A DNA stretch of 64,000 bases from a virus. The stretch spans positions 206,994 through 270,993 of IMG/VR virus record IMGVR_UViG_3300045988_139374; one strand, given 5' to 3'. Positions 1-62,497 of this stretch are shown in pieces (positions within the stretch are counted from its first letter, which is position 1; every line of letters starts with the position of its first letter). The position numbers were made by a program, and so were the translations under genes. A model generated the notes under the pieces. The model had not been told where the DNA came from, made no database searches, and worked only from the letters and a program-made list of their open reading frames with translations.

Positions 1-126
1 TATAAATTGGAATCCTTCGCTTAAATCATTATTACCAATAATAGTATTAATTAAAATTTTATCTAGTGATATTGTATATCCATTTATAGAACTAATAGCT
101 GTCATCATTTTAATAGAAGCGTCAGA
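1..126 (-). other. start-less DAS cassette X0 (partial, runs off left edge)
   Basis: The minus strand opens at a reverse copy of TGACGCTTCTA (core 114-124). It reads SDASIKMMTAISSINGYTISLDKILINTIIGNNDLSEGFQFI for all 42 codons to the window edge, with no start codon or RBS. Confidence 0.6.
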
Positions 127-153
127 CTTATTTATAAAGGAGGTAAATTTATT

Positions 154-807
154 ATGGGAATTATTATAAATGAAAAGTGTGTTACTTATAATAAAATTTA
201 TGATATTAAGAATACTAAAATAGATAAATATAAATTGGTTATCATTGGTGAAATACATGGATCTTCTATGATTGGGGTTTATGATAAACTTCTTAAATCT
301 TCTCATTATGATTACTTTCTTGCTGAATTTGCTTATGATGATAAAGCTCTTACTAGAGAAGATATTAAATATAAAATGGATCATGCTACTAATGGTGGAA
401 TGGGTCCGTGTGATTATCAATATAATTATTGGCTTTATGAATTAGCATATAAATATAATATTCCTTTGATTGGTATTGATAGAGGAGATACTAATAGTTT
501 TAAATCTAGAGAAGAAGAATTTAAAACTAGAGAATCTATTATGATCAATACTATTCAACAATATTCAGGAAAAGGAAGATGCTTAGTGCAAATAGGAGAT
601 GCTCATGTAAGAAATATTCCTATTAGTAAAGAATATATTAAGCAATATAATTATGATGATGAATTCTACGAAGGAAATATTGATAATCAAACAGTATCTT
701 TTGCAAGTCCAATATATGAAAAATATGTAAATGATCCAAATGCAATTATATTTAGAAATAAAAAAGAATATGAAGATGAACAAAAATTTTTAAAAGAAAA
801 TTCATAA
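154..807 (+). CDS. hypothetical protein
   Basis: 217-codon ORF with AAGGAGGT at 137-144 and a terminator hairpin after the stop. The EIHGS...GDAHV motifs only vaguely recall ChaN/Tiki-type folds, so no function is assigned. Confidence 0.8.
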   Translation: MGIIINEKCVTYNKIYDIKNTKIDKYKLVIIGEIHGSSMIGVYDKLLKSSHYDYFLAEFAYDDKALTREDIKYKMDHATNGGMGPCDYQYNYWLYELAYKYNIPLIGIDRGDTNSFKSREEEFKTRESIMINTIQQYSGKGRCLVQIGDAHVRNIPISKEYIKQYNYDDEFYEGNIDNQTVSFASPIYEKYVNDPNAIIFRNKKEYEDEQKFLKENS

Positions 808-810
808 AGA

Positions 811-848
811 TAGAGGTAGAGTATTTTTACTCTACCTCTATTATATTT
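811..848 (+). terminator. rho-independent terminator
   Basis: TAGAGGTAGAG (811-821) pairs with CTCTACCTCTA (830-840) and is followed by a T-rich run. Confidence 0.75.
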
Positions 849-870
849 TAATTATTGTACTAAATAAATA

Positions 871-913
871 TATAATATAATAATGAGATAGAAGGAAGAA
901 AGAGTACTTCTAT
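871..913 (+). promoter_or_regulatory. promoter-like -10 block plus conserved 5' hairpin (variant copy)
   Basis: TATAATATAATAATGA is followed by the stem ATAGAAG (888-894) / CTTCTAT (907-913). The hairpin sequence is the same as at 35097-35122 and 40176-40199. Confidence 0.55.
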
Positions 914-943
914 TGGCCTGTAAATAAAAGTGGAGGTATTAAA

Positions 944-1756
944 ATGATTGATGGATTAAAGATGCTTACAGAAGACGATGTAAAAATCGAATTCTTAGAA
1001 TCAGCAAACAATGGAATATGCTATATTGCAATGGTTGAGTATTCGATTAGTTATGGCAAAATCGAATATAAGATGTATTCCGTAAGAACTGTTGTAAAAA
1101 TACCAATTTTTAGAACTCGTCGTTGTATTATTGTAGATAATATTCCTGATAATGAATATATCGATGCTAATTACGATAATGTCAAATGCCGTTATGATAA
1201 TATGGCTAAAACATTATTTGAAAATAATAGAATAGTATATGATGGTGTCGAAACCATTGATCAAAATGCGTTTGTATCTAAGATTTGCTTGGATGCATGT
1301 GTAAAAAAGATCAATCGCGCTACAGCAAAATTATATTTCCAAAATATGAACATCAGTTTTTTAAACATTGATGTGAATAAAAAACTTCCGACTCAGTTGG
1401 ATATGACTATATTTATCAATGGTAATCAGGAAACTATTAGCATTATGAATGTGAACAAAATTAAAAAGCATGGCGCTTCTCGTGCAAGGTCTAATAGTTT
1501 TTATATCATTGATAAGAAAGTTCATAAATCTATAATTTATTGCATGCTAGATGCAATAAGAGAGATATATGGATATGGACTATACGAATATGGTCTTGAC
1601 AGATGCGATTTAAAATCTATTAATGATATTCTCAATAAATATAACATTGAATATGGCGATGATATATTTATTGATATTGAATCTAAATACGAATATATCA
1701 TTAATATGATAGATAATCATATTAATGATAATACTGATGAAATGGTATATCAATAA
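944..1756 (+). CDS. hypothetical protein
   Basis: 270-codon ORF with a GGAGG RBS (931-935) and a strong terminator after the stop. Confidence 0.85.
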   Translation: MIDGLKMLTEDDVKIEFLESANNGICYIAMVEYSISYGKIEYKMYSVRTVVKIPIFRTRRCIIVDNIPDNEYIDANYDNVKCRYDNMAKTLFENNRIVYDGVETIDQNAFVSKICLDACVKKINRATAKLYFQNMNISFLNIDVNKKLPTQLDMTIFINGNQETISIMNVNKIKKHGASRARSNSFYIIDKKVHKSIIYCMLDAIREIYGYGLYEYGLDRCDLKSINDILNKYNIEYGDDIFIDIESKYEYIINMIDNHINDNTDEMVYQ

Positions 1757-1763
1757 TATAAAA

Positions 1764-1803
1764 GGAGTGGGTTCCATTCGCCCACTCCTTTTATTTTTTT
1801 TTT
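1764..1803 (+). terminator. rho-independent terminator
   Basis: GGAGTGGG (1764-1771) pairs with CCCACTCC (1781-1788), followed by a long T-run. It is nearly identical to the terminator at 58162-58198. Confidence 0.85.
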
Positions 1804-1828
1804 CAAAAAGTAGATTAAAATACAATAA

Positions 1829-2122
1829 TCTGACGCTTCTATTAAGTACATAGATATTTCATTACATCTAAAGAGTAGTATATCATATGAACATAACATA
1901 TCATCAAATCCTATTATATCTATTATAGGAGTTTTTACAAATATTAGTAATTGTATTCCAATACTTAATAATCTATCTTTTGAAGAAAAAATTGATTCTA
2001 ATGATAACTTAGTCGAATTCCAAGTAATTGACTATAATTTATATACTATAAGTAGTGGAAAATTAATATTAACAAAAGTATCTGGATATGTTACTATATT
2101 TTATATTGAACCTTCCAATTAA
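1829..2122 (+). other. start-less DAS cassette X1 (97 codons)
   Basis: Motif core at 1831-1841, with TAA (1826-1828) in the same frame directly upstream. The ORF runs SDASIKYIDISL...GYVTIFYIEPSN-stop and has no ATG or RBS. Confidence 0.65.
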
Positions 2123-2126
2123 ATAA

Positions 2127-2633
2127 TCTGACGCTTCTAAGAATTTTGGAAATGGAAGTTTTATTAAATCCATTACTTATGAAGGATATTATACAATTAG
2201 TGATAAATATATAAACCATATGAGTTCAGATACTTGTATTAGAACTACTGTATCTAAAATGTATGATGTTGTGTTATTCGCTGAATTAGAAACTACAAAC
2301 AATACTTTATTAGCTGAGCAAAATCCATATGTTAAAGTATTTCAAAATATTATCAAAGGTTCATTTGCTGGATATGTATTTATGAATTTAATGCCTACAT
2401 CTTGGAAGATTTTATATAATAATACTTCTAGCAATGATTTTATTGGGCCATATGTTGAATATGATCATTGTCCTACAAGTGGTGTAGTAGCTAGAAGAAA
2501 TAGATTATCCATAGAAAGATACTGTGCAAAGTATACTAACAATATGGATTATCAATTATTAGCTAGACAAGGCATTAGATATGATGTATATGGTCTAATG
2601 CTTAGAGATGAAATTGCTAATCTATTTAGATAA
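2127..2633 (+). other. start-less DAS cassette X2 (168 codons)
   Basis: Motif core at 2129-2139, with in-frame TAA at 2124-2126. The frame SDASKNFGNGSF... continues into track ORF 2220-2633, which is in frame (93 nt offset). Confidence 0.65.
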
Positions 2634-2634
2634 G

Positions 2635-2820
2635 TATGACGCTTCTATCAAGCGAACTGTTGTTACTCTTAAATATAATAATACCGAAGTAGGATGTAAA
2701 TTTACATTAGGAGCTCCAGTTGGAGGATATATACTTACAGAAATTAATAGCTGGATTGTAATACGTATGGATAAAAATATGAATATTCTATATTTGGAAT
2801 TTATGTTCGTACTTGGTTAG
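2635..2820 (+). other. start-less DAS cassette C4 (61 codons, family C)
   Basis: Motif core at 2637-2647. The ORF reads YDASIKRTVVTLKYNNTEVGCKFTLGAPVGG..., and KFTLGAPV matches QFTLGIPISV of cassettes C1 and C3. Confidence 0.6.
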
Positions 2821-2888
2821 GTGACGGATTAATTGAAAAAATTCAATATATAGATAATTATTATAAAGCTACTATATTTTACATTTAA
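2820..2888 (+). pseudogene. decayed cassette remnant
   Basis: Degenerate motif TGACGgaTTaA (2822-2832, 8 of 11 matches) is followed by 22 codons ending KATIFYI-stop, which is the family 3' tail. Confidence 0.45.
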
Positions 2889-2893
2889 AAGTA

Positions 2894-2929
2894 TCCCTAT
2901 GGATTAAAAGTCCATAGGGACTTTATTTT
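2894..2929 (+). terminator. rho-independent terminator
   Basis: TCCCTATGGA (2894-2903) pairs with TCCATAGGGA (2911-2920), followed by a T-run. Confidence 0.8.
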
Positions 2930-2994
2930 GAAAACTTTATAATAAAATCGTATCGAAATCGATACTCTCACTCTAGAAAGGAGCGTATAATATT

Positions 2995-5451
2995 ATGGGA
3001 CTTAATATGAACTATCATTTTTTCCTTGAAGGATATCAGTCTCATTGCCATATTCCTGATTATATTAGGGCTAATAATTCTCAGATTCCAGTAGATGAAT
3101 CCATTCTGAAGGCTACACTAGAATTTGCTAATACTTGTAGAAATTCTGTTTCCACTATTACTTCTGTTTCTGAAGCAGATGCTGGTACTGTTCAATTTGA
3201 GCAAATTTATTCTTCTCTATCCACTGCTATTAGATCTGTAGATTCTGTAAAAGCTACTATGCTTAAGACAATAGAAGATGCAAGAATGAATGTAGATAGA
3301 TCTAGAGATCATAAAAACGATCAAATTGAATCTCAATATAATATTGCAGAGAGAGTAAAGTATCTAGATAAAGCTATTCATTTTGCTAGCACATCTAATC
3401 CTGATGATCTAATGTATAATTCTACTGCTAAGCTTTCTGCAGATATTACAGTTAAAGATCAATCATTCCCCAATCTGAATGCTATTAAAGATATTCTTCA
3501 TGGAAAGTCGATTGCTATTCCTGATAATATCACTGCTTCTTCTGATTATACTACTGGTATGATCATGGATAAAGATTCTGTTCTTTATACTCTGCTTGGT
3601 AAGTATTATTCTCCTGTAGAATCTGCTAGTATTATGCAATTTGCAGTGAACTTCACTAATGATTTTATGGATAATACTAAAATAGATCATAAGATTGAAG
3701 TACAGGATTATCTAACCGCATTCTCTAATATCAATGCAGTAGATGATATGATCAAGTATCTAGATAATCTTAAAGCAACTACAGAGTCTGCTTTTAATGA
3801 TTGTCTAAAAACTATGTATGATTACTGTGATCATCTTAAGGGAGAAGCTTCTACTAATTATAAAGAAAATTATGGTACTGTAATTAGTGCATTGATTAAC
3901 AATGTACAGAATATTATCTGTGCTGCTAATATTGTCACTACTAGAAAAGTAAATATTATTTCTAATCTATATGGTGCAAATGGAGATAGTTGGAAGACTA
4001 TTGAATTTGCCCATTCTCTGATTGGTAAATACTATGATAAGATCATTACTCCTAATGTAATGGCACAAGATGCTGGAAAAGATATTCCTAATAATGCTAT
4101 TGTATTCAATGGAGCAGATCAAGTTCAAGAATTTTATAATATTCAGAGCCAGTCTAATATTCTAGATATGCTTATTGAGAATGCTTATAATGAATATATG
4201 TATGACGATGCTCTAGAAAAGGTTTTGCAAGAAGCTACTGCTTTGCATGAAAATGATAATAACGGTGGAAATGCTACTCCTGCAAATGGTGGACAATCTG
4301 TAGGCTCTGGTGGTGATCAAGGATCTACTGGACAAGCTGGTCAGCAAGCTGCTCCTGCACAACAGCAAAATGCTAATAATGGCCAGCAACAGCAACAATC
4401 CGGAACTCAGAATTCTGCCAATAATACAAATGATAAGACTAAGAAGAATAAGTTTGGTATTCTTAATTGGCTGAAGCAAATGATGGGCAGACTCGGTGAA
4501 GCTATCAACAAGTTTAAACTTCGTGTTGAGGAAATGATTACTAAAGGCCCTGATAAAAAGTTCTGGGCTGATAATAAAGATAAGATTAGAAATATTGATA
4601 TTTCTGGTACTGAAGTTAATCAGTGGTATCAATATAAGTTTGATATCTTTAAGAATTCTACTTATATCAAATTCAATCCTACTGATAATACTCTTAAGTC
4701 TGATACTGATCTACAAGATGCTATTCTTTCTAAGATTAATGGCGGTACAAAACCCAATATTAATACTGATGAAAAGGATACATTTGCTACCAAGATCAAT
4801 AAAGTATATCAGGGTGAATATATTAATATTGAAAATGGTAATGGCAAGACTCTAGGAGATATTCAATACAATAAGGATGCTGCATTTACCTTTGTTGATC
4901 AATTTATCAATAAAGGATTTAATAGTGAATCTCTAGGCTCTATTACTGAAGATTATCGTAAGATTGATGAAGACTATAAAGATGCTGCTAAGAGATATGA
5001 TGAATATGCTAATCAGTTTAAGCAGACTCAATCTCAGAATCAAGCATCTAATAATTCTGGTGAACCTAAATCTAATGGTAACACTTCTGGAAACTCTGGC
5101 AATCAAAGTGGTAATACACAACAGCAGCAAGCAAATGCTGAATCTGCATTCTCTGATTTTTCCTCTGGATTTAATCTGGCTGAATGCCTTGGATTGATGA
5201 ACTGTGGAAACGCTATTAATGAAGCAGATATTAAGCCTGATCAATCTACTGCACAATCTGCAGATCAAGCTAACGGTACTATTGATAATGCTGAGCTTGA
5301 TAAGATGATTCATCGTTGCTTCTCTATGAATATTTCTGCTATTACTGCTAAACTTACTAATGCTATGGCAGCATATAAACAGAATATGCAACTCTTTAAA
5401 GCAGTTACTAAAGCATCTGCTGTAAAGAATAAGGATAATAATAAAAAGTAA
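2995..5451 (+). CDS. large hypothetical protein with Q/N/G-rich low-complexity linkers (possibly virion-associated)
   Basis: 818-codon ORF with an AAGGAG RBS. Two low-complexity stretches are present (NGGNATPANGGQS...QQQQQSGTQN and SNGNTSGNSGNQSGNTQQQQ). Confidence 0.85.
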   Translation: MGLNMNYHFFLEGYQSHCHIPDYIRANNSQIPVDESILKATLEFANTCRNSVSTITSVSEADAGTVQFEQIYSSLSTAIRSVDSVKATMLKTIEDARMNVDRSRDHKNDQIESQYNIAERVKYLDKAIHFASTSNPDDLMYNSTAKLSADITVKDQSFPNLNAIKDILHGKSIAIPDNITASSDYTTGMIMDKDSVLYTLLGKYYSPVESASIMQFAVNFTNDFMDNTKIDHKIEVQDYLTAFSNINAVDDMIKYLDNLKATTESAFNDCLKTMYDYCDHLKGEASTNYKENYGTVISALINNVQNIICAANIVTTRKVNIISNLYGANGDSWKTIEFAHSLIGKYYDKIITPNVMAQDAGKDIPNNAIVFNGADQVQEFYNIQSQSNILDMLIENAYNEYMYDDALEKVLQEATALHENDNNGGNATPANGGQSVGSGGDQGSTGQAGQQAAPAQQQNANNGQQQQQSGTQNSANNTNDKTKKNKFGILNWLKQMMGRLGEAINKFKLRVEEMITKGPDKKFWADNKDKIRNIDISGTEVNQWYQYKFDIFKNSTYIKFNPTDNTLKSDTDLQDAILSKINGGTKPNINTDEKDTFATKINKVYQGEYINIENGNGKTLGDIQYNKDAAFTFVDQFINKGFNSESLGSITEDYRKIDEDYKDAAKRYDEYANQFKQTQSQNQASNNSGEPKSNGNTSGNSGNQSGNTQQQQANAESAFSDFSSGFNLAECLGLMNCGNAINEADIKPDQSTAQSADQANGTIDNAELDKMIHRCFSMNISAITAKLTNAMAAYKQNMQLFKAVTKASAVKNKDNNKK

Positions 5452-5462
5452 AAAAAAATAAA

Positions 5463-5491
5463 GAGGAGTAGAGAATCAAACTCTACTCCTC
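5463..5491. terminator. bidirectional terminator hairpin
   Basis: GAGGAGTAGAG pairs with CTCTACTCCTC, between convergent genes 2995-5451 (+) and 5520-5795 (-). Confidence 0.75.
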
Positions 5492-5519
5492 TTATTACAT
5501 TATTATAATGCAGATTCAA

Positions 5520-5795
5520 TTAGATTGGAGCAAGTGAATTTTTAGCAATAGCCGCTTTAAGTTTGGTATTGAATTCTTTATCTGCTTTACATAGTCGGTC
5601 AAAGATATTTGGTTTCGATTTCTTCGGAACCTCAATAACTTTCTTATCAAGTGTTGGGAATAGATTTGCTACATTTTCAGGAACTCCAGCAGGGATTGTT
5701 TTCATAGTAACAATGTTTGTAGATCCATCATCATTATGTACAATGAATTCATTTTCCTTGTAAAAATCAAAAGCTTTGTAAGTATTGTTAGACAT
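5520..5795 (-). CDS. hypothetical protein
   Basis: 91-codon ORF with an AAAGGA RBS on the minus strand upstream of the ATG at 5795. Confidence 0.75.
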   Translation of the reverse strand: MSNNTYKAFDFYKENEFIVHNDDGSTNIVTMKTIPAGVPENVANLFPTLDKKVIEVPKKSKPNIFDRLCKADKEFNTKLKAAIAKNSLAPI

Positions 5796-5913
5796 AATGT
5801 CATCCTTTCTTCTATCATACGATAGAGCTAAAATTGTTAATAAATATTGAAACTTTGGTACCTCTAATACTATTATTTCATATTTATAATATCTAATTGA
5901 ATCTGCATTTTAT

Positions 5914-5957
5914 TAAAAATAATCCGGGTAGAGGTTAATCCTCTACCCGGTTTTTAT
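5914..5957. terminator. terminator hairpin
   Basis: CCGGGTAGAGG (5924-5934) pairs with CCTCTACCCGG (5940-5950) and is flanked by A- and T-runs. It lies immediately downstream of the minus-strand gene that ends at 5958. Confidence 0.8.
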
Positions 5958-8900
5958 TTATTGAATATTATACCTATCTAATGGTAATGTAGGAATAATT
6001 TTTCTACACATGTTATCGATCTTCTTAGAACTATAAACTCCAATACCACCGATAAACATACTGAACAATCTATCATCAATGCTTTTATCAAGATCTCCAG
6101 GACTTACTAAACTGGCATCTTTAGTAACTCTAAGTTTCAAATTAGCAATTGCTAGGATAGTATAGACGAATTGGCTACACACCATCTCAGTTTTGTTCTT
6201 AAATTCATTTCCAAAGTCAGAAGCTTTCTTAAAGAAAATATTAATGATAGTCTTCATAGAATATTTGGTATCATCTTGATGCTTAATATACCAATCTACA
6301 GCATCTCTCATCATATCTCTCTGAGCTGCAGTGACAAACAATGCATGAACTTTGAATTTAATACTAGGATCAATTTTCCAATACTTCTCAATGGATTCAA
6401 TAGTGAATCCTGCAGACTTACCATCTGCAAAGACATTATTATTTGCATTGAAAGTATACATTTGTTTCATAGAAGAATCAAAGCTCATTGCTGCATGAGA
6501 CCATTCTGTATGAGTATACCATTCAATTGCTCTACTATGTAATGCTTTACCACTGAATAGGCAAATATACACAGGAACAATTTTATCCTTTAATTCTTCA
6601 TAAGTAGCTTTATTAAAAGAATGGATACTTTTGATATAATCTTCAGCATCAACTTCTCTAAAGATATGCATTGTATGCTTACTATTTCTAACTCTTTCCA
6701 ATGCTTCTTCATTAAATGGTATTTCAGGATTCCAACCAAGTATAGAGATTTCACTCTTGATTGCATTTTTTTGTTCAGAGTCACTAGTATTCTTCATTCT
6801 TACACAAAGTTCACTAATAACTCTTTTCCAAGAAGTTTCATCTACTACTTCTTCATGAGAAACATTTACATCAGAACTAAAATAATCAATTTTATCAGTA
6901 GGAGAATAATATTGATCAATAGGAGCAATAACCATATTAGAATTATCACTAGTATATCCATCTTGATTATTCATATATTTGGATAATAGTCTTGAATACA
7001 TAGTATCATTATCATATCCAAAGATATTATATGCAGTTCTGTTAGATAGAGTTCTCTTATCCTGATTAAGAGCAAGGTATTGATTATACTTTGTTTTCAA
7101 TCTATCAATATCTTCTTTACCTTTATTAGAAACAATATTATCTGGATAGATAAGTACTAGTCCATAATTCTTTTCTGCTTCCTCTGCTTGTTTAATTTTT
7201 GCTACATAAGTTGTAGCATCATCAGAAAAGACAGTATCATGGCTACTAGAAGTAGAAGCTTCATGAAGAGTATTTAGATTTGCTAGATTAGAAACCTGTT
7301 CTTCTAGTCTAGTAATAGGATCACCAAGAATAAAGGATCTTACCCCTTCACAGATATCTTGAATCTGTTCATCAAAACTCTGTACCTGCTCAAACCTAGT
7401 ATCATATTTAATTTGATCATCGGATAGAAGTTTAGAACCTTCTGTAAGCCTTCTATAGATATAGTCTCTAGAAACTTCTCCTGCAAAGAAAATCTTTCCA
7501 TAAGCTTCACACATTGCTAGCTCGTCATATAGCTCTTTTGCTGTTTGCTTATCTTTGATCTTAAACGTGGTATATTTTTTAGAGATTTTAGATTTATCAG
7601 TTTTAAAGACTTTATAGAATCCATGTTCCTCAGGATCTACAGAGTACATTGTATATTGTACAGGATCTTTAGTAATAGAATAATTAAATACATTATTTTG
7701 CATATGCTGGATAATATAATAATTATCTTTATCACATTCATAAGGAATAGGATTCGGAGTTAGAGGAATAGCAGATCCAATAGCACCAGACATAGACTCT
7801 GTAATCTTGCTATTAGTAATAAAAGGCTTAATCATTTTTTCATCTTCAGGAAGGCAAGCATTTACATAATCATTTAGATTCATACCATTCTTAATTTTAG
7901 AGCTATTTACAGAGCCAACATATAGATTTTTATAATTACCCCAAATCCATGCATTTGCAATAGCAATTTTAAGATCGAAAATACTATTATAAGGACCATG
8001 AATTCCAGTTTGTCCATACCAAGCATTTTCAATCCAATAATATTTTCCATTCTGCTTATAATAAGCAGCAGTATGAGTTTTTCCTCCAGGAGAATTTAGA
8101 TTATTATATTCAATTACAAATAATCTTCCATTAGAAATATCTTTAGTAGACAATTTACTATGAATATAATTTGCTTGATCGTGACAATCTCCATATCCAT
8201 ATTCTTCTACCTCTTCAGGAGATAGAAGAATTCCAGTAGATTTATATCTAATATTTGTATTCATCCAACTATAAAGCTCTTTAGGATAATTACTATTAGA
8301 TACAAATTCTAGCAAAGTAGATTCATTTACTTTAACAGGATTTGCTTCTAGGGTCATATAGTACAAATCATCGTCTTCATAATAGACTTTAAATCCATAT
8401 TCATCATAAATCATTTTAGCAAGTTTATTATTCTTATCCACAGAGAGATACTTGCAGTTCATAGTTTTAGTAGCGAAATCAAGAATCTGCTTACTCAAAC
8501 CATGACCCTTATAATCTTTCATAATATCTAAACTTACAATCCATTTAGTACCATCATCTAGATATTCGCAAGATCCTACTTGAGCTACTAGATTCTCTTT
8601 ATCAAACCACATGTAGCCGTCACATTTATAAGTATCAGTATCTTTACATCTAACATGGCGTAGATCAGGATACTGCTTTTTATACTTTTCAATGATAGTT
8701 TCAGTAATATGAACCCTCTTTAGAGAAGATAACTCAATTCTATCCTTAGGTTTAAAATTTCTATCTACGGTACTAGCAGTTTCTAGAAGCATACTTTCAT
8801 TAACTTTAATAACAGGATCCTTATATCTATGAGCCATGTTATACTTTAGTACTGCCATGATGCTCAATACCTGACTAAAGTCATTATTAACTACTCTTAC

Positions 8901-9617
8901 ATAGCTAAATTCATTAAGCTGCCTAATAGCTTCTTCCTTTGCTCTAAGCTTCAGCTCATCTTCTCCAGTACGATGAGGATGATTATTTGGATTACTTCCA
9001 CCATCTTTAATCTCAATAATAAGATTATAAGGAATATAATAGAAATCAGGAATATAAAGATGAGTCTTTCCTTCATATTGATATTTAATACTAGGAGCAG
9101 GAGCTAGAATATCTTCAGATTCACAATGCATTACTTGATCCATAAACTGAAGAAACTTTCTCTCATAGCTGCCAAAATACTCAATTTTTCCACCATCGGC
9201 GAAAGTATATTCTCCATGCATTTTACGTCCAGCTAGTGCTTTTCTCTGGACATATTCTGCATACTCAGGATCAGTCTGAAGACGTTCAGTACCATATTTC
9301 TTTTTTGTTCTTTCTGCAACCATCTTCTTATATGCTTCATGACATTTAGGATCATTACAGAGTCTTTCGTATCTTCCTTTATCTTCATTCCAATCAGTAA
9401 CATTGCCGCACATGATGCAATGTCCTTCAGTTTTATTATTAATAGTATTAAAAGCAACTCTAAGCGCAGTATATCCTTCAGGAATTAAATCTTCATGTTT
9501 TTCTTGAATATGAATATGAAGCTTTGCTCTTGTGAATCGTCCTTCACAATAAGGACACTTATATTTTTTCTGGTAAGTGCTCTTAGTAGCATTGGAAACC
9601 ATAGCTTCTGATTGCAT
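5958..9617 (-). CDS. multi-domain polyvalent protein: Zn-finger plus PD-(D/E)xK-like N-terminus, GNAT acetyltransferase, transglutaminase-like Cys protease, permuted papain-like (YiiX/NlpC-P60-type) C-terminus
   Basis: 1219-codon ORF with an AAGGAGG RBS. Motifs seen: CPYCEGRF...HIHIQEKH; YIPDF...IIEIKDGG; KDYKGHGLSKQILDF (GNAT Q/RxxGxG/A); GYGDCHDQANY...THTAAYY (Cys-His); SRAIEWYTHTEWSHAAMSF...VCSQFVY (permuted papain-like). Confidence 0.6.
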   Translation of the reverse strand: MQSEAMVSNATKSTYQKKYKCPYCEGRFTRAKLHIHIQEKHEDLIPEGYTALRVAFNTINNKTEGHCIMCGNVTDWNEDKGRYERLCNDPKCHEAYKKMVAERTKKKYGTERLQTDPEYAEYVQRKALAGRKMHGEYTFADGGKIEYFGSYERKFLQFMDQVMHCESEDILAPAPSIKYQYEGKTHLYIPDFYYIPYNLIIEIKDGGSNPNNHPHRTGEDELKLRAKEEAIRQLNEFSYVRVVNNDFSQVLSIMAVLKYNMAHRYKDPVIKVNESMLLETASTVDRNFKPKDRIELSSLKRVHITETIIEKYKKQYPDLRHVRCKDTDTYKCDGYMWFDKENLVAQVGSCEYLDDGTKWIVSLDIMKDYKGHGLSKQILDFATKTMNCKYLSVDKNNKLAKMIYDEYGFKVYYEDDDLYYMTLEANPVKVNESTLLEFVSNSNYPKELYSWMNTNIRYKSTGILLSPEEVEEYGYGDCHDQANYIHSKLSTKDISNGRLFVIEYNNLNSPGGKTHTAAYYKQNGKYYWIENAWYGQTGIHGPYNSIFDLKIAIANAWIWGNYKNLYVGSVNSSKIKNGMNLNDYVNACLPEDEKMIKPFITNSKITESMSGAIGSAIPLTPNPIPYECDKDNYYIIQHMQNNVFNYSITKDPVQYTMYSVDPEEHGFYKVFKTDKSKISKKYTTFKIKDKQTAKELYDELAMCEAYGKIFFAGEVSRDYIYRRLTEGSKLLSDDQIKYDTRFEQVQSFDEQIQDICEGVRSFILGDPITRLEEQVSNLANLNTLHEASTSSSHDTVFSDDATTYVAKIKQAEEAEKNYGLVLIYPDNIVSNKGKEDIDRLKTKYNQYLALNQDKRTLSNRTAYNIFGYDNDTMYSRLLSKYMNNQDGYTSDNSNMVIAPIDQYYSPTDKIDYFSSDVNVSHEEVVDETSWKRVISELCVRMKNTSDSEQKNAIKSEISILGWNPEIPFNEEALERVRNSKHTMHIFREVDAEDYIKSIHSFNKATYEELKDKIVPVYICLFSGKALHSRAIEWYTHTEWSHAAMSFDSSMKQMYTFNANNNVFADGKSAGFTIESIEKYWKIDPSIKFKVHALFVTAAQRDMMRDAVDWYIKHQDDTKYSMKTIINIFFKKASDFGNEFKNKTEMVCSQFVYTILAIANLKLRVTKDASLVSPGDLDKSIDDRLFSMFIGGIGVYSSKKIDNMCRKIIPTLPLDRYNIQ

Positions 9618-9745
9618 ATTTATTCCTCCTTAAATGATATAATCAGTGAATTATTGTGATGTTTTAGAGGTCCTATTTTCACTGACTTACTATTAATATT
9701 TGATATTTAATACAATTATATAATTAGGTAAAGGTGGTAATTCAT

Positions 9746-10120
9746 ATGGTAGAACATTTGCTAACTACAAATGAGTATCTTGAACCTAAAACTCTAAAAG
9801 GAGCAGATGCTTATGGAACATTGCTTTTTCGTCTATTAATTTTACAACCTGGAGAGAATCCATTACATCCTAGAATGGGTGTTGGATTAGGTCCAAAATA
9901 TAGATTTATTTCTGAAGACGATCTTGAAATGCTAAGATCTAGAATTCAAAATCAAATTGAGACTTATCTTCCTGGTGAATTTCTAACATTGGATGTAAAT
10001 CTGAACCTAAAAGAGAATAGTAAGTATTTGCAAATAATTATTATCACTGATGAAACAAAATTTGTATATGATACAGAGAGTAGTTCTACTCCTATAGAGT
10101 TGAGTGATCTTGTATCATAA
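9746..10120 (+). CDS. baseplate wedge protein, GPW/gp25-like
   Basis: The ATG at 9746 follows AAGGTGG, whereas the track ORF starts at GTG 9734. LQPGENPLHPRMGVGL fits the gp25/GPW family signature (from memory), and the gene sits in a tail context. Confidence 0.45.
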   Translation: MVEHLLTTNEYLEPKTLKGADAYGTLLFRLLILQPGENPLHPRMGVGLGPKYRFISEDDLEMLRSRIQNQIETYLPGEFLTLDVNLNLKENSKYLQIIIITDETKFVYDTESSSTPIELSDLVS

Positions 10121-10153
10121 CATTGAAATCTTTTAAAGAAGGAGAATCAACAA

Positions 10154-12100
10154 ATGAACGTAAACGATCTAAATCGTACAGATACTCAAAGAGTGGTAAT
10201 TTCTCAGCCTGGTGTATCTAATAATAATGCTACACAAAATATTAGTATTTCTGCTGTTAAGCCTGAAAACGCTCCTATTTCCATTAATGCAACCAATGGA
10301 GCTTCTGGAATTGAAGAAGATACTAATGGAAATCGACCCGTGATTAGAATTAATCCTAATCGTAGAAAGGGTCATCGCTCTGTTGGTGCTAATGAGACTA
10401 TTGAGACTGTGAATCCTGATGATTATATCCAGACTCAGACTAAGAAGGTAGATCCTAAGTTCTTCCAGGATAAGTATATGACTGAGCTAGATGCTGCAGT
10501 TGCTCGTAAGCAGCAGGAATATGTAGATGCTGTTGAAAGTATGAGCGCTCAAGATGCTGCTAATAGAGAAAAGGTTGAAGCAGGCCTAGAAGATGTCGGT
10601 GGCGAAATTCAGTATATGCCCGATCCTCTGCACCATCCTATGAGTGAAGATGAAAAGGTTAAGACTACTGCTCCTATTAATCCTAATCGTGGCATTGTTA
10701 CTGAAGATCTAGAAGATGAAGTTCTAGATAATGATGATGAGGAAGAAGAGATTTCTTCTCCTGTGAGAATTCAGGGTAGTGACTATCAGCCTATTAATGA
10801 TCCTTTCAATACTCCTGCACATCAGGCAGAGCCTACTTATGGTTCTGGACCTGAGTCTGATGAGGTAGATGAAGATATCGTTGATGATGAGCCTGTAGAA
10901 GAGGAAGAGATTATTCCTGAGGCTCATCCTTCTAAGGTTGAGGATCTTGACACTAAAGTTATTAGTGTTACTTCTGATGATCTAGAAGATATTGATGATT
11001 CTGACTTTGATGAAGAAGATGATGAAGATACAACTTACGATGATGATGAGGAGCAACAGAAGCTGTCTGAAGCTGCTGCTAATAATCTTCGTAATGATAT
11101 TATTACTAAGATTATTAATGCTGGCCGTAAGATGAATACTTCTCAGCTAGTTGTTTCTAATAAGGTCATTAATATTAAGGACGCTATGAAGAATATGAAG
11201 ACTACTACTGCTAAGACTGCAGTATGGCCTCTAATGTTTGCAAATCGTCCTTATATTGCATCTGCTCTTAAGGGTGCTGAGCTTGCTATGCTTAATGAGG
11301 ATAGTAATAATAATGGTATTATGACTGTGCCTCAGATGCAGATTCTCTTTGAGCACGATGTTAATCCAAATCGTCCTTCTACTGTTGAAGCTTGGGCTAA
11401 GACTATCCCTTATGCAGATTTGGACAATGTCTTTGCTGCACTATTTATGGCATCTCTTGACGGAGCTAATTTTATGCCTTGCAATTGCTCCAATGATAAG
11501 TGTCTGAATTCTTGGCTGTCTGATGATGTACCTATGGAGAAGCTCATGCACTTTACAGATGATGATACTAAGAAGAAGTTTGAAAAGATTAAGAAAATGG
11601 AACTAACTCCTGAAAACTCTGGAGCATATGAGTCCGTGGTTACTGTTATTAATAATAATCTAGCCGTTGGCGTTAAGATTCCTTCTCTGTATACAATTAT
11701 GTATGAAATTGGAGCTCTTGATGATGCATTCGTAAATAAGTATGAATCTATCATCAATATTACTCGCTTCATTGATCGTCTATATATGATTGATGAAAAT
11801 GGTAATATGTATCCCATTGGATGGAAAAAGTATCCTGGCGATCATGCTAAGTCTTTCAAGTCTAAGATTATCACTTATGCTAAGATTCTTAAGAATCTAG
11901 ATCCTGTTGAATTTGGCGTCGTATCTACTCTGATTATTACTATGATGAATAATATGCATGCCAATATTACTTATAGTATTCCTAAGTATACTTGTCCTAA
12001 GTGTGGCCATAGTAGCAACGAGGTTGAAGTGAGTCCTCGTAACCTACTTTTTTTGCGCCAGCAGTTGGTCCGTATAGCAACTTCTCTTGGAACAAAATAA
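10154..12100 (+). CDS. structural-module protein with acidic D/E-rich linker and C-terminal CPKCGH zinc-ribbon-like motif (zero-frame product)
   Basis: 648-codon ORF with a GAAGGAGA RBS. It carries a -1 slippery site 15 codons before its stop. Confidence 0.85.
   Translation: MNVNDLNRTDTQRVVISQPGVSNNNATQNISISAVKPENAPISINATNGASGIEEDTNGNRPVIRINPNRRKGHRSVGANETIETVNPDDYIQTQTKKVDPKFFQDKYMTELDAAVARKQQEYVDAVESMSAQDAANREKVEAGLEDVGGEIQYMPDPLHHPMSEDEKVKTTAPINPNRGIVTEDLEDEVLDNDDEEEEISSPVRIQGSDYQPINDPFNTPAHQAEPTYGSGPESDEVDEDIVDDEPVEEEEIIPEAHPSKVEDLDTKVISVTSDDLEDIDDSDFDEEDDEDTTYDDDEEQQKLSEAAANNLRNDIITKIINAGRKMNTSQLVVSNKVINIKDAMKNMKTTTAKTAVWPLMFANRPYIASALKGAELAMLNEDSNNNGIMTVPQMQILFEHDVNPNRPSTVEAWAKTIPYADLDNVFAALFMASLDGANFMPCNCSNDKCLNSWLSDDVPMEKLMHFTDDDTKKKFEKIKKMELTPENSGAYESVVTVINNNLAVGVKIPSLYTIMYEIGALDDAFVNKYESIINITRFIDRLYMIDENGNMYPIGWKKYPGDHAKSFKSKIITYAKILKNLDPVEFGVVSTLIITMMNNMHANITYSIPKYTCPKCGHSSNEVEVSPRNLLFLRQQLVRIATSLGTK
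12049..12055 (+). promoter_or_regulatory. candidate -1 programmed ribosomal frameshift heptamer T_TTT_TTG
   Basis: The zero-frame codons are ctT TTT TTG, which fits the X_XXY_YYZ pattern. The -1 frame opens at 12043 (after TAA 12040-12042) and stays open to 12279. Confidence 0.5.
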
Positions 12101-21296: not shown

Positions 21297-21361
21297 AATT
21301 ATTCTTATTTTCACTTGTATAGTATAAAAGTGATAAGAAGGATAAATATATTCCTTCTTAT
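21293..21361 (+). promoter_or_regulatory. conserved promoter block plus 5' hairpin
   Basis: TTTTAATTATTCTTATTTTCACTTGTATAGTATAAAA is identical to the blocks at 35055 and 63963. The stem is ATAAGAAGGA (21333-21342) / TCCTTCTTAT (21352-21361). Confidence 0.65.
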
Positions 21362-21408
21362 AAAGAATTTTATTATATTGAAAGGTACAATATTGGAGGT
21401 ACTTTACT

Positions 21409-21771
21409 ATGTCTATTAGTAATGAGGAGTGGGAAAGATTTTGTGAAGGCATTGATAGTGGCAGTGCTCATCACGTTTACGAAATTGAAAAGCATGATTA
21501 TAATATGATTTTTACTCGTAAGGGTAAAAAATATTCTGCCATGCTTCATCGTATGATTAATCATGGCAATGCAAAATCTGGCAAGACCATGCGCCAGATT
21601 TATAGGTACTGCTATCAGTACTTGTTTGATATAGGCTTGACGCAATTTTATCCTCCTATCTTTAACCCTAGAGCGAGATACATCGTTGAGTTAGGCGATG
21701 ACAATTATTTATATATTAAGAATGTAACAAAGGATAAGAGGTATAGGACATTGTCCAATAATGAGAAATAA
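21409..21771 (+). CDS. hypothetical protein
   Basis: 120 codons with a TGGAGGT RBS. Confidence 0.8.
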   Translation: MSISNEEWERFCEGIDSGSAHHVYEIEKHDYNMIFTRKGKKYSAMLHRMINHGNAKSGKTMRQIYRYCYQYLFDIGLTQFYPPIFNPRARYIVELGDDNYLYIKNVTKDKRYRTLSNNEK

Positions 21772-21779
21772 CTGAAAAA

Positions 21780-21819
21780 GGAGTGAAGAGTAAAATCTTC
21801 ACTTCCTTTTATTTTTTTA
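21780..21819 (+). terminator. rho-independent terminator
   Basis: GTGAAG pairs with CTTCAC within GGAGTGAAGAGTAAAATCTTCACTTCC, followed by a T-run. Confidence 0.7.
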
Positions 21820-21822
21820 TAA

Positions 21823-22066
21823 TCTGACGCTTCTACTAATATTAAAAAACTTGATAATGTATATATATATATATTCAAAAGGATATGAATTAGCAGGTAC
21901 AATGATAGGATGTAATATACTAGACAGGCCAAGTATAGCCAAGAATGATTTTGTCTACATGGCATATCAAATTGAAGGTATAGTATATGCCGTATATGGA
22001 CCATATAAGTCTTCTTCGATTAACTTTACAGTGTATGGTACTAATGCAAATATACTATACATTTAA
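21823..22066 (+). pseudogene. DAS cassette A1 (family A), frame broken in an (AT)7 run
   Basis: Motif core at 21825-21835 with in-frame TAA at 21820-21822. SDASTNIKKLDNVYIYI then shifts frame inside ATATATATATATAT (21861-21874). The remainder, SKGYELAGTMIGCNIL...ANILYI-stop, aligns with A2 and A3. Confidence 0.6.
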
Positions 22067-22069
22067 TAC

Positions 22070-22402
22070 ACTGACGCTTCTAATAAAATTTTTAAAATGG
22101 ATATTAAGTCTGATACAATAATATTCGATGGATTATTTGATTATAAAAGAATATTTCTTTGGCCAGATTGCGATTTTGTTATATTATCAATTTATGATGA
22201 TAATGCTGTTATACGGCCTTTTAATGTTAATAATAATCATAAGGTACTTCTTTGGTATTCTTGGTATCATGATCATTATATGAATAATGGTGAAGATGCA
22301 ATAGGCACTGCAATAGATCTTTTATTTTCACAAAATTATGAAAATTATTCTCATACATTTCAAGAAATCAATACAATTATTTATTATAAGAACAAGAATT
22401 AA
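22070..22402 (+). other. start-less DAS cassette B1 (family B)
   Basis: Motif core at 22072-22082. TDASNKIFKMDIKS...LLWYSWYHDHY...INTIIYYKNKN-stop is in the same frame as A1, separated by the TAA at 22064-22066. Confidence 0.6.
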
Positions 22403-22408
22403 GATTAG

Positions 22409-22714
22409 TATGACGCTTCTAATAAAATCTATAAAACGGAAATTAGTTGTGGATATAAATCATTTAAGCAAGTAGTAGATTATATAAAGATAGGCGATAT
22501 AAGTGATTTTGTTATTCCAATATCAATATATAAAAAATCTGCAGATATACGTCCTATGAGTAATTCTACTGGAGCAGATGCACTTCTTTGGTATTCTTGG
22601 TATTATACTGAAAATAAAACTAGTATATTTCTTTTATATACTACCAAAGCTACTTCTACGAATTATTCATTTCAAGAACTTAATACGATTGTATATTATA
22701 TTCTACCAATCTGA
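22409..22714 (+). other. start-less DAS cassette B2 (family B, 101 codons)
   Basis: Motif core at 22411-22421. YDASNKIYKTEISCG...ISDFVIPISIYKKSADI...LLWYSWYY...NTIVYYILPI ends on the TGA that is part of the next motif copy (22712-22714). Confidence 0.65.
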
Positions 22715-22955
22715 CGCTTCTATAAAGAAGCTTAATAATATTTATATTGCTTATGATGTTGGGTATGAATTAAATGGTACAATGATAGGATATAATATAT
22801 TAACAGTTCCAAATAATTTTGTCATCAATGACAAATATAATTATATTGGAGCGTTTCAGTATAAAGATAAAATATATGCTATATATGGATACACTGTGAT
22901 CAACGGATTTACTCTTACCAGATATAATAGCTATGCTAATATAGTATATATTTAA
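22710..22955 (+). other. start-less DAS cassette A2 (family A, 81 codons)
   Basis: Motif core at 22712-22722. The ORF reads SDASIKKLNNIYIAYDVGYELNGTMIGYNIL...YANIVYI-stop. Confidence 0.65.
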
Positions 22956-22956
22956 G

Positions 22957-23247
22957 TCTAATGACGCTTCTATTAAACATCTTAGTTTTGCCTGTGATAC
23001 TGTTACATTTGTTGCTATGATAGGTTTTAGAAAGATATATAATACATATAATAGTATTATATATCCGATATCTATATATACTACAGATCGTATACTTCCT
23101 GCTACTGATGGAGAAGACATAATTGTCCCAATATTTGCATGGTATAATTATAGTAACAATACTAGCATTTATCTATGCTTATTTCAGACAGAGCTGCATA
23201 CAACTGTAATGAATAATTTTACAACACATGTTTATTATATAAAATAA
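22957..23247 (+). other. start-less DAS cassette B3 (family B, divergent)
   Basis: Motif core at 22962-22972. The ORF reads SNDASIKHLSFACDTV...YPISIYTTDR...IFAWYNYSNNTSIY...THVYYIK-stop. Confidence 0.6.
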
Positions 23248-23251
23248 TTAA

Positions 23252-23476
23252 TCTAATGACGCTTCTATAAAAAAGCTTAGTAATATTTATATTAATACTT
23301 TTAATGGATATCCATTAAATGGCACAATGATAGGATGCGATATATTAGATAGTCCAAATTGGATGTTTAATTATATTACAGCATATCAATATAAAGGTAA
23401 AATATATGTTACATCATGGGCATCTGGCAGCGATTTTCAAAGTTTTAATAGCCATGCAAATATTGTATATATTTAA
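23252..23476 (+). other. start-less DAS cassette A3 (family A, 74 codons)
   Basis: Motif core at 23257-23267. The ORF reads SNDASIKKLSNIYINTFNGYPLNGTMIGCDIL...HANIVYI-stop. Confidence 0.65.
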
Positions 23477-23607
23477 TTTATTTACACATCTGGTGCATTA
23501 AAGCTAAAATAACATCTCAGTAAGGTATCCAATTTTGGTGCTGATTGGATATCTGTCCAATATCACTTAGGCGATGTTGGTAGGCATAATATTTTCTCCA
23601 AAAAGAT

Positions 23608-61571: not shown

Positions 61572-61612
61572 AACCAATAGAGAGAAATCTCTATTGGTTT
61601 TATTTTTTTTTT
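61572..61612 (+). terminator. terminator hairpin inside the cassette array
   Basis: AACCAATAGAGA pairs with TCTCTATTGGTT, followed by a T-rich tract (TTTATTTTTTTTTT). Confidence 0.8.
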
Positions 61613-61636
61613 GAAAATATATTAAAATTATAATAA

Positions 61637-61849
61637 TTTGACGCTTCTACTAAAATTAGGCATCAAGATATAAATATTACAGATAGTAGTGGATATACTT
61701 TTAGAACTGGAACACCTATATCTGCAGTATATATAGGAGATACAAGTAGTAATTATGCTATTATAACTTTTTCAAATGTAATTATGATAAAAGGTTTCGG
61801 ATCATTAGGTTCTAGTACTACAGGTACTGCTAGAGTATATTATATCTAA
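61637..61849 (+). other. start-less DAS cassette C2 (family C, 70 codons)
   Basis: Motif core at 61639-61649 with in-frame TAA at 61634-61636. FDASTKIRHQDINITDSSGYTFRTGTPISAVY...GTARVYYI-stop is followed by the degenerate motif ATCTAATGAtatTTC. Confidence 0.65.
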
Positions 61850-61904
61850 TGATATTTCACATCATAATAATTCTCGAAAACTTTTCATAAAGGAGATAAT
61901 TATT

Positions 61905-62408: not shown

Positions 62409-62454
62409 GTATTTATTTCCAGGTATAATAGATAGTAAAACATATTTGAATTAA

Positions 62455-62497
62455 AATAATTCACTAGAGATCCTTCTCTAGTGAATTATTATTTGCT
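62455..62497. terminator. bidirectional terminator hairpin
   Basis: TTCACTAGAGA (62460-62470) pairs with TCTCTAGTGAA (62475-62485). Confidence 0.85.

Follow-up and report, generated by a model that had tools for sequence, protein, structure and literature searches.

The DNA analysed here, referred to throughout as the window, is a stretch of 64,000 nt from the IMG/VR record IMGVR_UViG_3300045988_139374 (positions 206,994–270,993), and near its left end lies array 1, a row of open reading frames (ORFs) that each open with the same 11-nt motif and that carry no start codon there. The window has ~30% G+C and holds split multisubunit RNA polymerase genes with closest matches in AR9/PBS1 (28% protein identity); its source is a human-gut jumbo phage of ~250–276 kb, of lytic type and distantly related to AR9. 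The motif and the cassette architecture also occur in metagenomic jumbo-phage contigs of 190–276 kb from human and pig gut samples. No match among GenBank phages was returned by megablast of window positions 1–12000 or by tblastn of a large module at 62498–63409 (−), and an IMG/VR search for relatives of the 270-residue gene that precedes the array (944–1756) found none. In what follows, L-numbers denote related loci or contigs compared with the window and P-numbers denote database proteins.

The motif, TGACGCTTCTA, is present in the window as 16 exact copies, against a chance expectation of 0.72 (counting up to one mismatch), and the 7-mer TGACGCT occurs at those 16 places only. Downstream of all 16 copies the frame xxT-GAC-GCT-TCT is open, for 21–303 codons, and most of the motif-led ORFs end in (I/V)(V/F)YI. 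We observed neither a Shine-Dalgarno (SD) sequence nor a start codon at these copies, which share one fixed reading frame throughout; ordinary window genes are preceded by a strong SD, GGAGG, and open with ATG. Frame c of the motif, the one that contains NTG, gives short peptides only and is closed after a few codons. Array 1 and its borders comprise the following features:

1758–1803, plus strand: intrinsic-terminator-like hairpin and T-run, with a 15-pair stem (hairpin 1758–1794) followed by TTTTTTTTTC; closes the gene at 944–1756
1804–1830, plus strand: AT-rich leader caaaaagtagattaaaatacaataatc, placed before the first site; related elements stand in front of 61639 and of several sites in relatives
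1831–2122, plus strand: unit X1, with site TGACGCTTCTA at 1831–1841; start-less, 96 codons from D (1832–2119), stop at 2120–2122
2129–2633, plus strand: unit X2, with its site at 2129–2139; start-less, 167 codons (2130–2630), stop at 2631–2633
2637–2888, plus strand: unit C4 (family C), with its site at 2637–2647; one cassette with a 1-nt deletion at 2772/2773
2822–2832, plus strand: chance resemblance to the motif, TGACGGATTAA (8 of 11 matches), coding for GDGLIE within C4; no site
2894–2929, plus strand: terminator-like hairpin (2894–2920) and T-run; closes array 1 just 5′ of the gene at 2995–5451

An earlier note on this DNA had placed motif cores at 1831, 2129 and 2637 and had given the cassettes 97, 168 and 61 codons, and both statements agreed with our motif search and with the frame xxT-GAC-GCT-TCT. 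The two terminators that it had seen around the array were recovered as the terminator-like hairpins listed above, X1 and X2 indeed had no paralogue in the window, and the kinship that it had noticed between C4 and distant cassettes was upheld, family C also comprising 61359, 61639 and 63644(−). Its degenerate fourth unit at 2822–2888, on the other hand, turned out to be the 3′ end of C4 after the 1-nt deletion. Set against the close relative L127, with which it shares 96% identity where the two align, window 2637–2888 is a single family-C cassette of 82/83 codons, and with the missing A-run base put back it is an 83-codon ORF that reads DASIKRTVV...WLGDGLIEKIQYIDNYYKATIFYI and a stop, with the C-terminal end ...GDGLIEKIQYIDNYYKATIFYI before it. 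From this alignment, TGACGgaTTaA is therefore internal C4 coding sequence and not a decayed site. C4 meets a premature stop at 2818–2820 because one base is missing from the A-run at 2772/2773, while the original stop is still present at 2886–2888; the frameshift is also found in the L124 assembly, which matches the window at 99.99%. Nor did the units prove to be small self-contained genes, since they have no start codon or SD and correspond to the 3′ halves of a putative fibre gene.

Start-less cassettes and their sites

X1 has an in-frame TAA two codons 5′ of D and a C-terminal end reading ..TIFYIEPSN, and its homologues are solely DAS-led cassettes of related phages. The earliest in-frame ATG of X2 is codon 31, and the 30 residues that precede it are conserved among homologues. 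Pfam and PHROGs gave no match for X1, X2 or the other cassettes, and when family C, X2 or X1 served as the query, as a profile or as a single sequence, only short proteins called from incidental starts came back.

To place these units in a larger set, we catalogued 84 distinct cassettes from the window and the related loci. An in-frame stop lies two codons 5′ of D in 32 of the 84, while ATG, GTG or TTG falls within three codons of D in only six; ten have no start codon at all, and the median position of the earliest one is 36% into the ORF. When 15 orthologous or paralogous pairs were pooled, the proportions of nonsynonymous (pN) and synonymous (pS) differences were 0.076 vs. 0.202 over codons 4–18 and 0.153 vs. 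0.268 over whole cassette ORFs. By these values, the start-less N-terminal codons 4–18 are under purifying selection. Positions 1–10 of the motif were invariant over 67 catalogued contexts, the search pattern itself having fixed 8 of these 10, and the same contexts favoured A at −4, T at −2, A/C at −1 and TAA at +13 to +15. This conservation lies at the nucleotide level. Gaps between cassettes are 0–21 nt. Of 34 junctions inside arrays, counted over the window and related loci, 22 have the site's TGA in the reading frame of the cassette before it (gaps of −3, 0, 3, 6 and so on); the pattern is suggestive of a stop or back-up stop for that cassette, the 34 junctions not being independent.

Several conventional routes to expression were considered and rejected. 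Internal ATG starts were ruled out by the conserved N-terminal residues 5′ of the earliest ATG and by the ten cassettes with no start of any kind; an NTG start in frame c followed by a frameshift, by the closure of that frame within a few codons; and a +1 shift at UGA-C linking successive cassettes, by the fact that most upstream cassettes end at TAA before the site. The motif has no conserved −10 at the right spacing, which ruled it out as a sigma-70 −35 element, and it was also ruled out as an AR9-type promoter, having no resemblance to the AR9 early or late consensus (PMC5312081). A search of the window for tRNA, tmRNA and ribozymes found no tRNA and no Rfam match, and a role of this kind was dropped.

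A broader form of these ideas would make each unit an independent small gene, with the motif as a compact promoter for the phage multisubunit RNA polymerase and/or as an unconventional start (a leaderless mRNA, or a +1 shift at UGA-C). Such a model would account for the terminators at both ends of arrays, for a frame fixed relative to the motif, for the NTG and UGAC within it, for the 22 of 34 upstream cassettes in frame with its TGA and for the few copies that have ATG or TTG two to three codons 5′, and AR9-type promoters are themselves only ~12 nt long (PMC5312081). We strongly disfavour it and give it very little chance of being correct. Most copies have no usable start, and many have the in-frame stop two codons 5′ that was counted above; none of the 17 X2 matches or 18 family-C matches has a start with an SD; frame c offers short peptides only; the motif is unlike the AR9 promoters; and the same modules are found joined to an N-domain, in DNA, at exactly the motif. 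The cassettes likewise have neither the promoter nor the translation start of their own by which moron-like genes are recognized.

N-domain fusions and a probable mobile head

In related phages we observed complete genes, with SD and ATG, in which such modules form the 3′ part. Those of L132 (8960–10060(−), 366 amino acids) and L133 (6001–6942, 313 amino acids) encode a conserved 137-residue N-domain ending in ...IYSMNQTLTSLN (..LTSLN/DAS), followed by an in-frame motif variant, TGACGCTT[AG]TC, and then by a module DA[YC]L..GGTMTG; elsewhere this module also occurs as start-less copies, which open exactly at the motif. Searching a database with the N-domain alone gave 85 proteins, 62 of which consist of the N-domain (83–98% identical), DAS(I/T/F/L/V/M)K and a module of at least 45 residues. 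The modules of these 62 proteins form 25 unrelated clusters, and 21 proteins whose N-domains average 93% identity carry modules of 10 different clusters. The variety among tips takes the form of unrelated whole modules and not of point variation; a diversity-generating retroelement would be marked by a template/variable repeat pair with adenine-specific differences next to a reverse transcriptase. Window types met in fused position are 61639 (in ~14 database proteins), 63644(−), 114(−), family B and the 300-residue type of 62498–63407(−). For X2, cluster members led us to P0127, a protein of 307 residues composed of the N-domain and an X2-type module; a pattern search of IMG/VR for an N-domain/X1 or N-domain/X2 junction had returned none. 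An AlphaFold2 model of the fusion P0041 has a helix at 121–138 that reaches the junction and a confident small beta domain at 143–204 (predicted local distance difference test scores of 83–93), and Foldseek searches with the models of X2 and of one fusion protein gave nothing significant.

We use the words virion fibre because of three weak family matches (PHROG, Peptidase_G2 and Phage_head_fibr), the last of them in a long paralogue at L267 (28.3 bits, cutoff 24.6). These similarities weakly suggest that the protein is a virion fibre, of tail or head, and its tips would set what the fibre binds. L267 comes from a more distant jumbo phage (IMGVR_UViG_3300028048_000001, 274 kb), where positions 325–1179 form a head-like unit with an N-domain broken by stop codons, bounded by TGACGCTTTTACGAAAAAGTC and ...ttcgttaaa-TGACGCT-agtatg; this phage also has the paralogue with the Phage_head_fibr match, of 344 residues, and the system or its remains reach beyond one lineage.

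An alignment of five expression loci revealed that the N-domain belongs to a unit of 944 nt, hereafter the head, which is bounded by the same site as the cassettes. At its left end stands a variant of the site, TGACGCT-ATTACGAAGTAG, that translates to DAITK and a stop when read in the frame of the cassettes; next come ~430 nt of non-coding sequence with hairpins, then SD and ATG, and then 137 N-domain codons with no stop codon. The promoter of the head would be located within the ~430-nt non-coding part, the sole place available for it. This part also contains a conserved AACA-N6-TA (L136 ~85–100; also L132, L133, L135 and L137) that matches the AR9 late-promoter consensus (PMC5312081); one occurrence is not beyond chance, and its conservation across heads is the sole added weight. 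Every head further contains an inverted copy of the site (aattatc-TGACGCT-tcttat) ~270–370 nt after the left site (L275 5839(−), L136 ~190, L135 9843(−)), and if this copy were used together with the right site, the N-domain segment would be flipped onto an 8-codon stub (DASYSLQS-stop).

The head was found in at least four genomic contexts. In L135 it lies within an array 5′ of the gene for deoxycytidine monophosphate (dCMP) deaminase, and in L133 and L132 it lies 5′ of a Peptidase_G2-like module. In L136 it is 5′ of the orthologue of window cassette 61639: L136 760–1580 corresponds to window 61639–62456 at 86% identity, and the homology starts exactly at the T of site 61639, which is empty in the window and occupied in L136. 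In L275 it sits within the orthologue of array 1, directly 5′ of the X2 orthologue, and thereby yields P0127; this locus shares both flanks with the window (107–849 and 2886–4893, each 93%), with ~14 units between. Beside these mobile heads, L139 (933–1374) has a second N-domain gene of hybrid sequence. This gene lies in a fixed context, has an SD of its own and follows a terminator with the sequence of window 1757–1800. Its product ends ...LTSLNDAITK-stop because a head-left site follows, and the locus has the look of an expression site that holds no tip and is capped by a head.

The combination of start-less units with an invariant 5′ motif resembles spliced-leader acceptor sites, and introns do occur in AR9-like phages, which raises the idea that trans-splicing or discontinuous transcription adds a leader exon to each cassette at the motif. 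As the main mechanism, such joining at the RNA level is refuted by the occupied and empty sites that we observed in DNA, and we attach to it only the slightest residual probability: assembled DNA contigs, as long as 276 kb, contain the fusions, the gaps of 0–21 nt leave no space for intron elements, and no Rfam family was detected in the window.

Probable head relocation, candidate recombinase and array turnover

The sibling loci L275 and L276 are 99.3–99.97% identical around the array, and what sets them apart is where the 944-nt head lies. L276 has an empty X2 site and carries the head 3.2 kb downstream, before another cassette with which the head encodes a 215-residue fusion; that cassette is silent in L275. 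The junctions read as follows:

X2 site, empty (L276): tttcaatc-TGACGCT-tctaagaa
X2 site, occupied, left junction (L275): tttcaatc-TGACGCT-attacgaa
X2 site, occupied, right junction (L275): cgctaaa-TGACGCT-tctaagaa
Second site, empty (L275): aatgagtc-TGACGCT-tctataca
Second site, occupied, left junction (L276): aatgagtc-TGACGCT-attacgaa
Second site, occupied, right junction (L276): cgctaaa-TGACGCT-tctataca

All junctions have the 7-bp core TGACGCT in common, and their arms are asymmetric. We also observed the hybrid junction, cgctaaa-TGACGCT-attacgaa, in L138, an independent MEGAHIT k141 contig of 1085 bp that matches the L275 head from end to end at 98.9% identity. L138 has an exact 141-nt terminal repeat, and it therefore represents a circle, or a tandem repeat, of 944 bp. 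Since a circle crossed with an empty site gives precisely the left and right junctions, with a 7-bp common core, we interpret the relocation as conservative site-specific recombination.

Among the related loci we found a 325-residue Xer-like tyrosine recombinase (Pfam Phage_integrase, 5e-40; NCBIfam XerA, 218 bits with a cutoff of 220; integron-integrase model, 103 bits with a cutoff of 265). It is 92–98% conserved in four IMG/VR jumbo-phage contigs, three with cassettes and a fourth with a head-left site, and in three of the four it lies 1.3 kb from cassettes. Only recombinases of the tyrosine family were found in the related loci, no search aimed at serine recombinases having been made; no invertible segment bounded by the motif was seen, and the site is unrelated to the 26-bp sites of serine invertases. 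In L134, a 12.9-kb contig of another phage, a partial N-domain homologue (5025–5165, 51%) and an Xer-like homologue (7327–8019, 47%) lie ~2 kb apart, with no TGACGCT site in the contig, and possibly represent a related system with a different site.

The earlier note had proposed aligning the locus across relatives and had expected gain, loss or replacement of units with breakpoints at the motif, and turnover with breakpoints of this kind was what we found. Relative to the window, L127 has the block 850–1825, with the 270-residue gene, replaced or absent, and homology resumes at 1826. The X2 unit occurs in other neighbourhoods in L119, L123, L129 and L132, its homology bounded by 2129 and ~2647–2651, and in L129 it occupies the position of array 2; there, array 2 of the window (21300–23510) is wholly replaced between flanks that are 92–96% identical. 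The turnover that the note had inferred therefore stands in that arrays change between relatives at the motif, while the remnant that it had taken for cassette birth and death is the frameshifted C4. Separately, L081 1075–1918 compared with window 61660–62494 (genome IMGVR_..._126218) has the 61639-type cassette and the next gene, of 167 residues, inverted. The inverted segment adjoins a site directly, the cassette has lost its first ~29 nt, and the arrangement looks like an aberrant or secondary-site inversion.

Taken as a whole, we think it likely that array 1 is one among several archives of promoter-less, start-less 3′ halves, encoding alternative fibre tips, that are expressed once a mobile head recombines in front of them. 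Each unit would open with an asymmetric recombination site composed of the core TGACGCT and the right side TCTAnTAA, and the 5′ half of the gene would ride on the 944-nt head, which is outside the window and would itself count as one unit of an array. Because the head N-domain has no stop codon, translation would read from it through the next site (D-A-S) into the downstream cassette. Recombination between the two sites that flank the head would excise it as a circle, the circle would re-enter any other site in the orientation dictated by the asymmetric site, and relocation would thus silence the old tip and express a new one. From its co-occurrence with the cassettes and its proximity to them, the Xer-like recombinase is the candidate to catalyse this movement.

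The main rival keeps the archive and the fusions and dispenses with a dedicated enzyme: the motif and the ..YYI-stop would serve as microhomologies for general recombination or replication (gene conversion, template switching), as in pilE/pilS or vlsE. A signature of gene conversion is indeed present within one genome, where the full-length gene of L133 and the start-less copy of L092 agree at ~99% over ~150 nt after the motif and are mosaic beyond; the standing of the recombinase as a candidate, and the greater divergence of the L275 and L276 heads than of their flanks, also fit this rival. Against it, the relocation is exact and conservative, one site becoming two with nothing lost or copied and the 'donor' cassette staying put, and a free circle or tandem junction exists. 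Moreover, 7–11 bp is very short for homology, the core is invariant at the 16 window sites and the 67 catalogued contexts while neighbouring codons vary, and a tyrosine recombinase is conserved in apparently lytic genomes. We regard general recombination as an unlikely source of the switch itself, and gene conversion probably occurs as well.

A number of observations weigh against an archive served by a mobile head. None of the head, the N-domain and the recombinase was found within the 64-kb window, so that all evidence for expression rests on relatives, and X1 was not seen fused to the N-domain in our searches. A contig like L138, with a terminal repeat of k length, would also result if the head were duplicated in tandem. 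Between L275 and L276 the heads agree at 96.3% and the flanks at 99.97%, and because the heads are the more diverged, the head may have been exchanged between co-infecting genomes instead of having moved inside one genome. The recombinase is linked to head movement by co-occurrence and proximity, and the enzyme was not found in the examined portions of the 276-kb genome, which cover part of that genome. The identity of the protein as a fibre is weak, given a match to phrog_8443 'tail fiber' with E 0.0011 and one to Peptidase_G2 of 21.9 bits, under the cutoff of 25. Finally, 3 of ~20 cassettes of this phage and L127 are frameshifted (C4 and 21825 in the window, X1 in L127), and part of the archive is therefore decaying.

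With the mobile head as the preferred explanation, we infer that switching would proceed at an appreciable rate during infection. More speculatively, and with doubts that somewhat outweigh our confidence, the system could be pictured as a programmed 'inverse integron' in a virulent jumbo phage, in which a 944-bp minicircle with the sole promoter and the 5′ half of a fibre gene would be excised by the Xer-like recombinase and plugged into any of perhaps a hundred 7-bp-core sites across the genome in each infection, such that one burst would carry many tips drawn from dozens of unrelated folds.

Further cassettes, known switches and implications

The remaining motif-led cassettes of the window are listed here:

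1–124, minus strand: start-less cassette, site at 114–124, truncated at the edge of the window; L124 has all 86 codons, and P0038 has this type joined to the N-domain
21825–22066, plus strand: family-B cassette; past codon 20 its frame is shifted within a (TA)n run
22072–22402, plus strand: family-A cassette, 109 codons
22411–22714, plus strand: family-A cassette of 100 codons, for which the TGA of the following site serves as stop
22712–22955, plus strand: family-B cassette, 80 codons; family B is fused to the N-domain in P0037, P0079 and others
22962–23247, plus strand: family-A-related cassette, 94 codons
23257–23476, plus strand: family-B cassette, 72 codons
61359–61566, plus strand: family-C cassette, 68 codons, between two terminators
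61639–61849, plus strand: family-C cassette, 69 codons; empty site, its orthologue in L136/L137 occupied by the head
62498–63407, minus strand: large module of 302 codons, start-less; another site lies in frame at 63139–63149 (..GYY/DASIGS..); family fused to the N-domain in L146, L217 and L261
63429–63654, minus strand: family-C cassette, 74 codons; type fused to the N-domain in P0044
63652–63955, minus strand: family-A cassette of 100 codons, again with the following site's TGA as stop; 3 codons 5′ of it is an incidental ATG with no SD

The frameshift tract of the 21825 cassette, the first of array 2, is the (TA)n run aatgtatatatatatatattc at 21845–21870, and it could be slippage-prone or reflect plain decay. 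A conserved AT-rich element, gaaaatatattaaaattataataat[tc], stands directly 5′ of some sites that follow terminators, both in the window (61612–61638 and 1804–1830) and in relatives (L092 4626–4652, L081 2165–2190, L123 3573–3597, L119 118–143 and L275 250–277). It is notable 5′ of the Peptidase_G2-like modules with their accessory operons, and could be a promoter for downstream genes when the head is absent. The Peptidase_G2-like fibre modules in L132, L123, L275, L276 and L127 each have 3′ of them a paralogous set of four genes for ~200–240, 200, 100 and 435–449 residues, the last a radical S-adenosylmethionine (SAM) protein; one member has a faint match to 'tSAM_targ_Cxxx_rpt', and the set may be an operon for tip maturation or peptide modification.

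In the 276-kb phage, L119 2241–3527 is a reverse-transcriptase gene (RVT_1, 428 residues) between a start-less large module and the genes for dCMP deaminase and RNA polymerase. Window 5958–9617 (−) encodes a 1219-residue multidomain protein, unrelated to the cassettes, whose N-terminal region is endonuclease-like (phrog_15137, 1.5e-42) and which also has a segment resembling acetyltransferases. Two exact 11-mers, 195 nt apart and in frame, lie within a capsid-like ORF of a 10-kb viral contig (L098 3359–3564 (−), IMGVR_UViG_3300030104_006993); they are probably an internal duplication and a coincidence, and we treated them as unrelated.

The system shares traits with several known switches. Integrons consist of an integrase (IntI), an attI site, attC sites (imperfect palindromes of 60–140 nt) and a promoter, Pc, to which cassettes with their own start codons move. 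Like integrons, the arrays here hold promoter-less cassettes in one orientation, with an Xer-related tyrosine recombinase, circular intermediates and expression by position relative to a single promoter, and excision as a circle with re-insertion is represented by the 944-bp circular or tandem contig and by the occupied and empty sites. The roles are inverted, however, in that a unit of promoter and 5′ coding sequence moves to fixed cassettes, which are start-less and fused in frame, and the sites have 7–15 bp without a folded attC. The recombinase falls short of the cutoff of the integron-integrase model (IntI has a characteristic extra domain), the promoter-bearing unit is mobile and not fixed like attI with Pc, and the units, 0–21 nt apart, have only the 11–15-nt motif conserved and no start codons.

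In Mycoplasma pulmonis (vsa; HvsR, vrs box) and M. agalactiae (vpma; Xer1), inversions within a single locus switch the expression site of bacterial surface lipoproteins. There, as here, one expression site has the promoter and 5′ end, many silent genes do not, a short site lies at the 5′ ends of the silent copies and a tyrosine recombinase is involved; no excised head circle is known in either. Silent cassettes also feed Neisseria pilE/pilS and Borrelia vlsE, by gene conversion, a non-reciprocal copying driven by homology. The likeness is a silent archive of partial genes that serves one expressed gene, with mosaic copies here too, whereas the junctions described here are conservative and site-specific. 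The R64/IncI shufflon, in which Rci acts at sfx sites with a 7-bp core and one conserved arm, switches the C-terminal end of PilV. C-terminal switching of an adhesin at a constant/variable boundary, the 7-bp core and the single conserved arm are common to both, but R64 inverts segments within one locus and has no mobile unit of promoter and N-terminal part and no genome-wide sites.

Keyword searches and a text search with the exact 11-mer in a library of papers did not find the system described, and only one relevant paper emerged, on the Rin shufflon of Bifidobacterium prophages. There one constant part, Rc, is combined with Rv parts that are start-less; the repeat, rix, is asymmetric and 11 bp long, and the invertase is predicted to be of the tyrosine type (Mavrich et al., 2018, PMC6109161). 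In both, a phage receptor-binding or fibre gene is split into a constant N-terminal part and start-less variable C-terminal parts, each variable part has a short asymmetric repeat at its 5′ end with breakpoints inside it (here in the core TGACGCT), and the predicted enzyme is of the tyrosine family. Rin is one compact locus with ~5 Rv genes beside the invertase, operating by inversion with a fixed Rc (PMC6109161), whereas the present system has 16 modules in the 64-kb window and 84 distinct ones in the window and related loci, placed in direct arrays and singly, on both strands, across a lytic-type jumbo genome. Its constant part and promoter are mobile as a 944-bp circle, excision and insertion were observed in place of inversion, and the Rin site TTCCCTAACCC is unrelated to TGACGCTTCTA. 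Nor did we find inversion of the shufflon type in a compact locus beside the recombinase: the sites are mostly direct repeats over at least 64 kb, and L081 has the sole inversion relative to the window. Min (p15B), Gin (Mu) and Cin (P1) are tail-fibre inversion systems (as summarized in PMC6109161), and they too switch the C-terminal end of a tail fibre by site-specific recombination at a constant/variable boundary. Unlike the system described here, they are serine invertases that use 26-bp sites, and they invert DNA in one locus with no mobile unit of promoter and N-terminal part and no sites spread over the genome. What sets the present system apart from known switches is the scale and dispersal of the archive, the direct arrays, the mobile circle of promoter plus N-domain, the excision and insertion, and the virulent-type jumbo phage that carries them.

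Phage ecology and phage therapy are limited mainly by host range and surface binding. The programmed switches that are known, the Gin, Cin and Min inversions and the Rin shufflon, give a phage few alternatives, and diversity-generating retroelements mutate one scaffold. If our interpretation is true, a lineage of gut phages would gain a library of dozens of unrelated tip modules, with one small mobile head choosing among them, and 25 module clusters have already been seen in expressed position. It would also explain puzzling start-less ORFs in metagenomic jumbo phages, which gene callers truncate or miss, and a site of 7–15 bp with a mobile unit of <1 kb suggests a compact, portable tool for in-frame swapping of modules.

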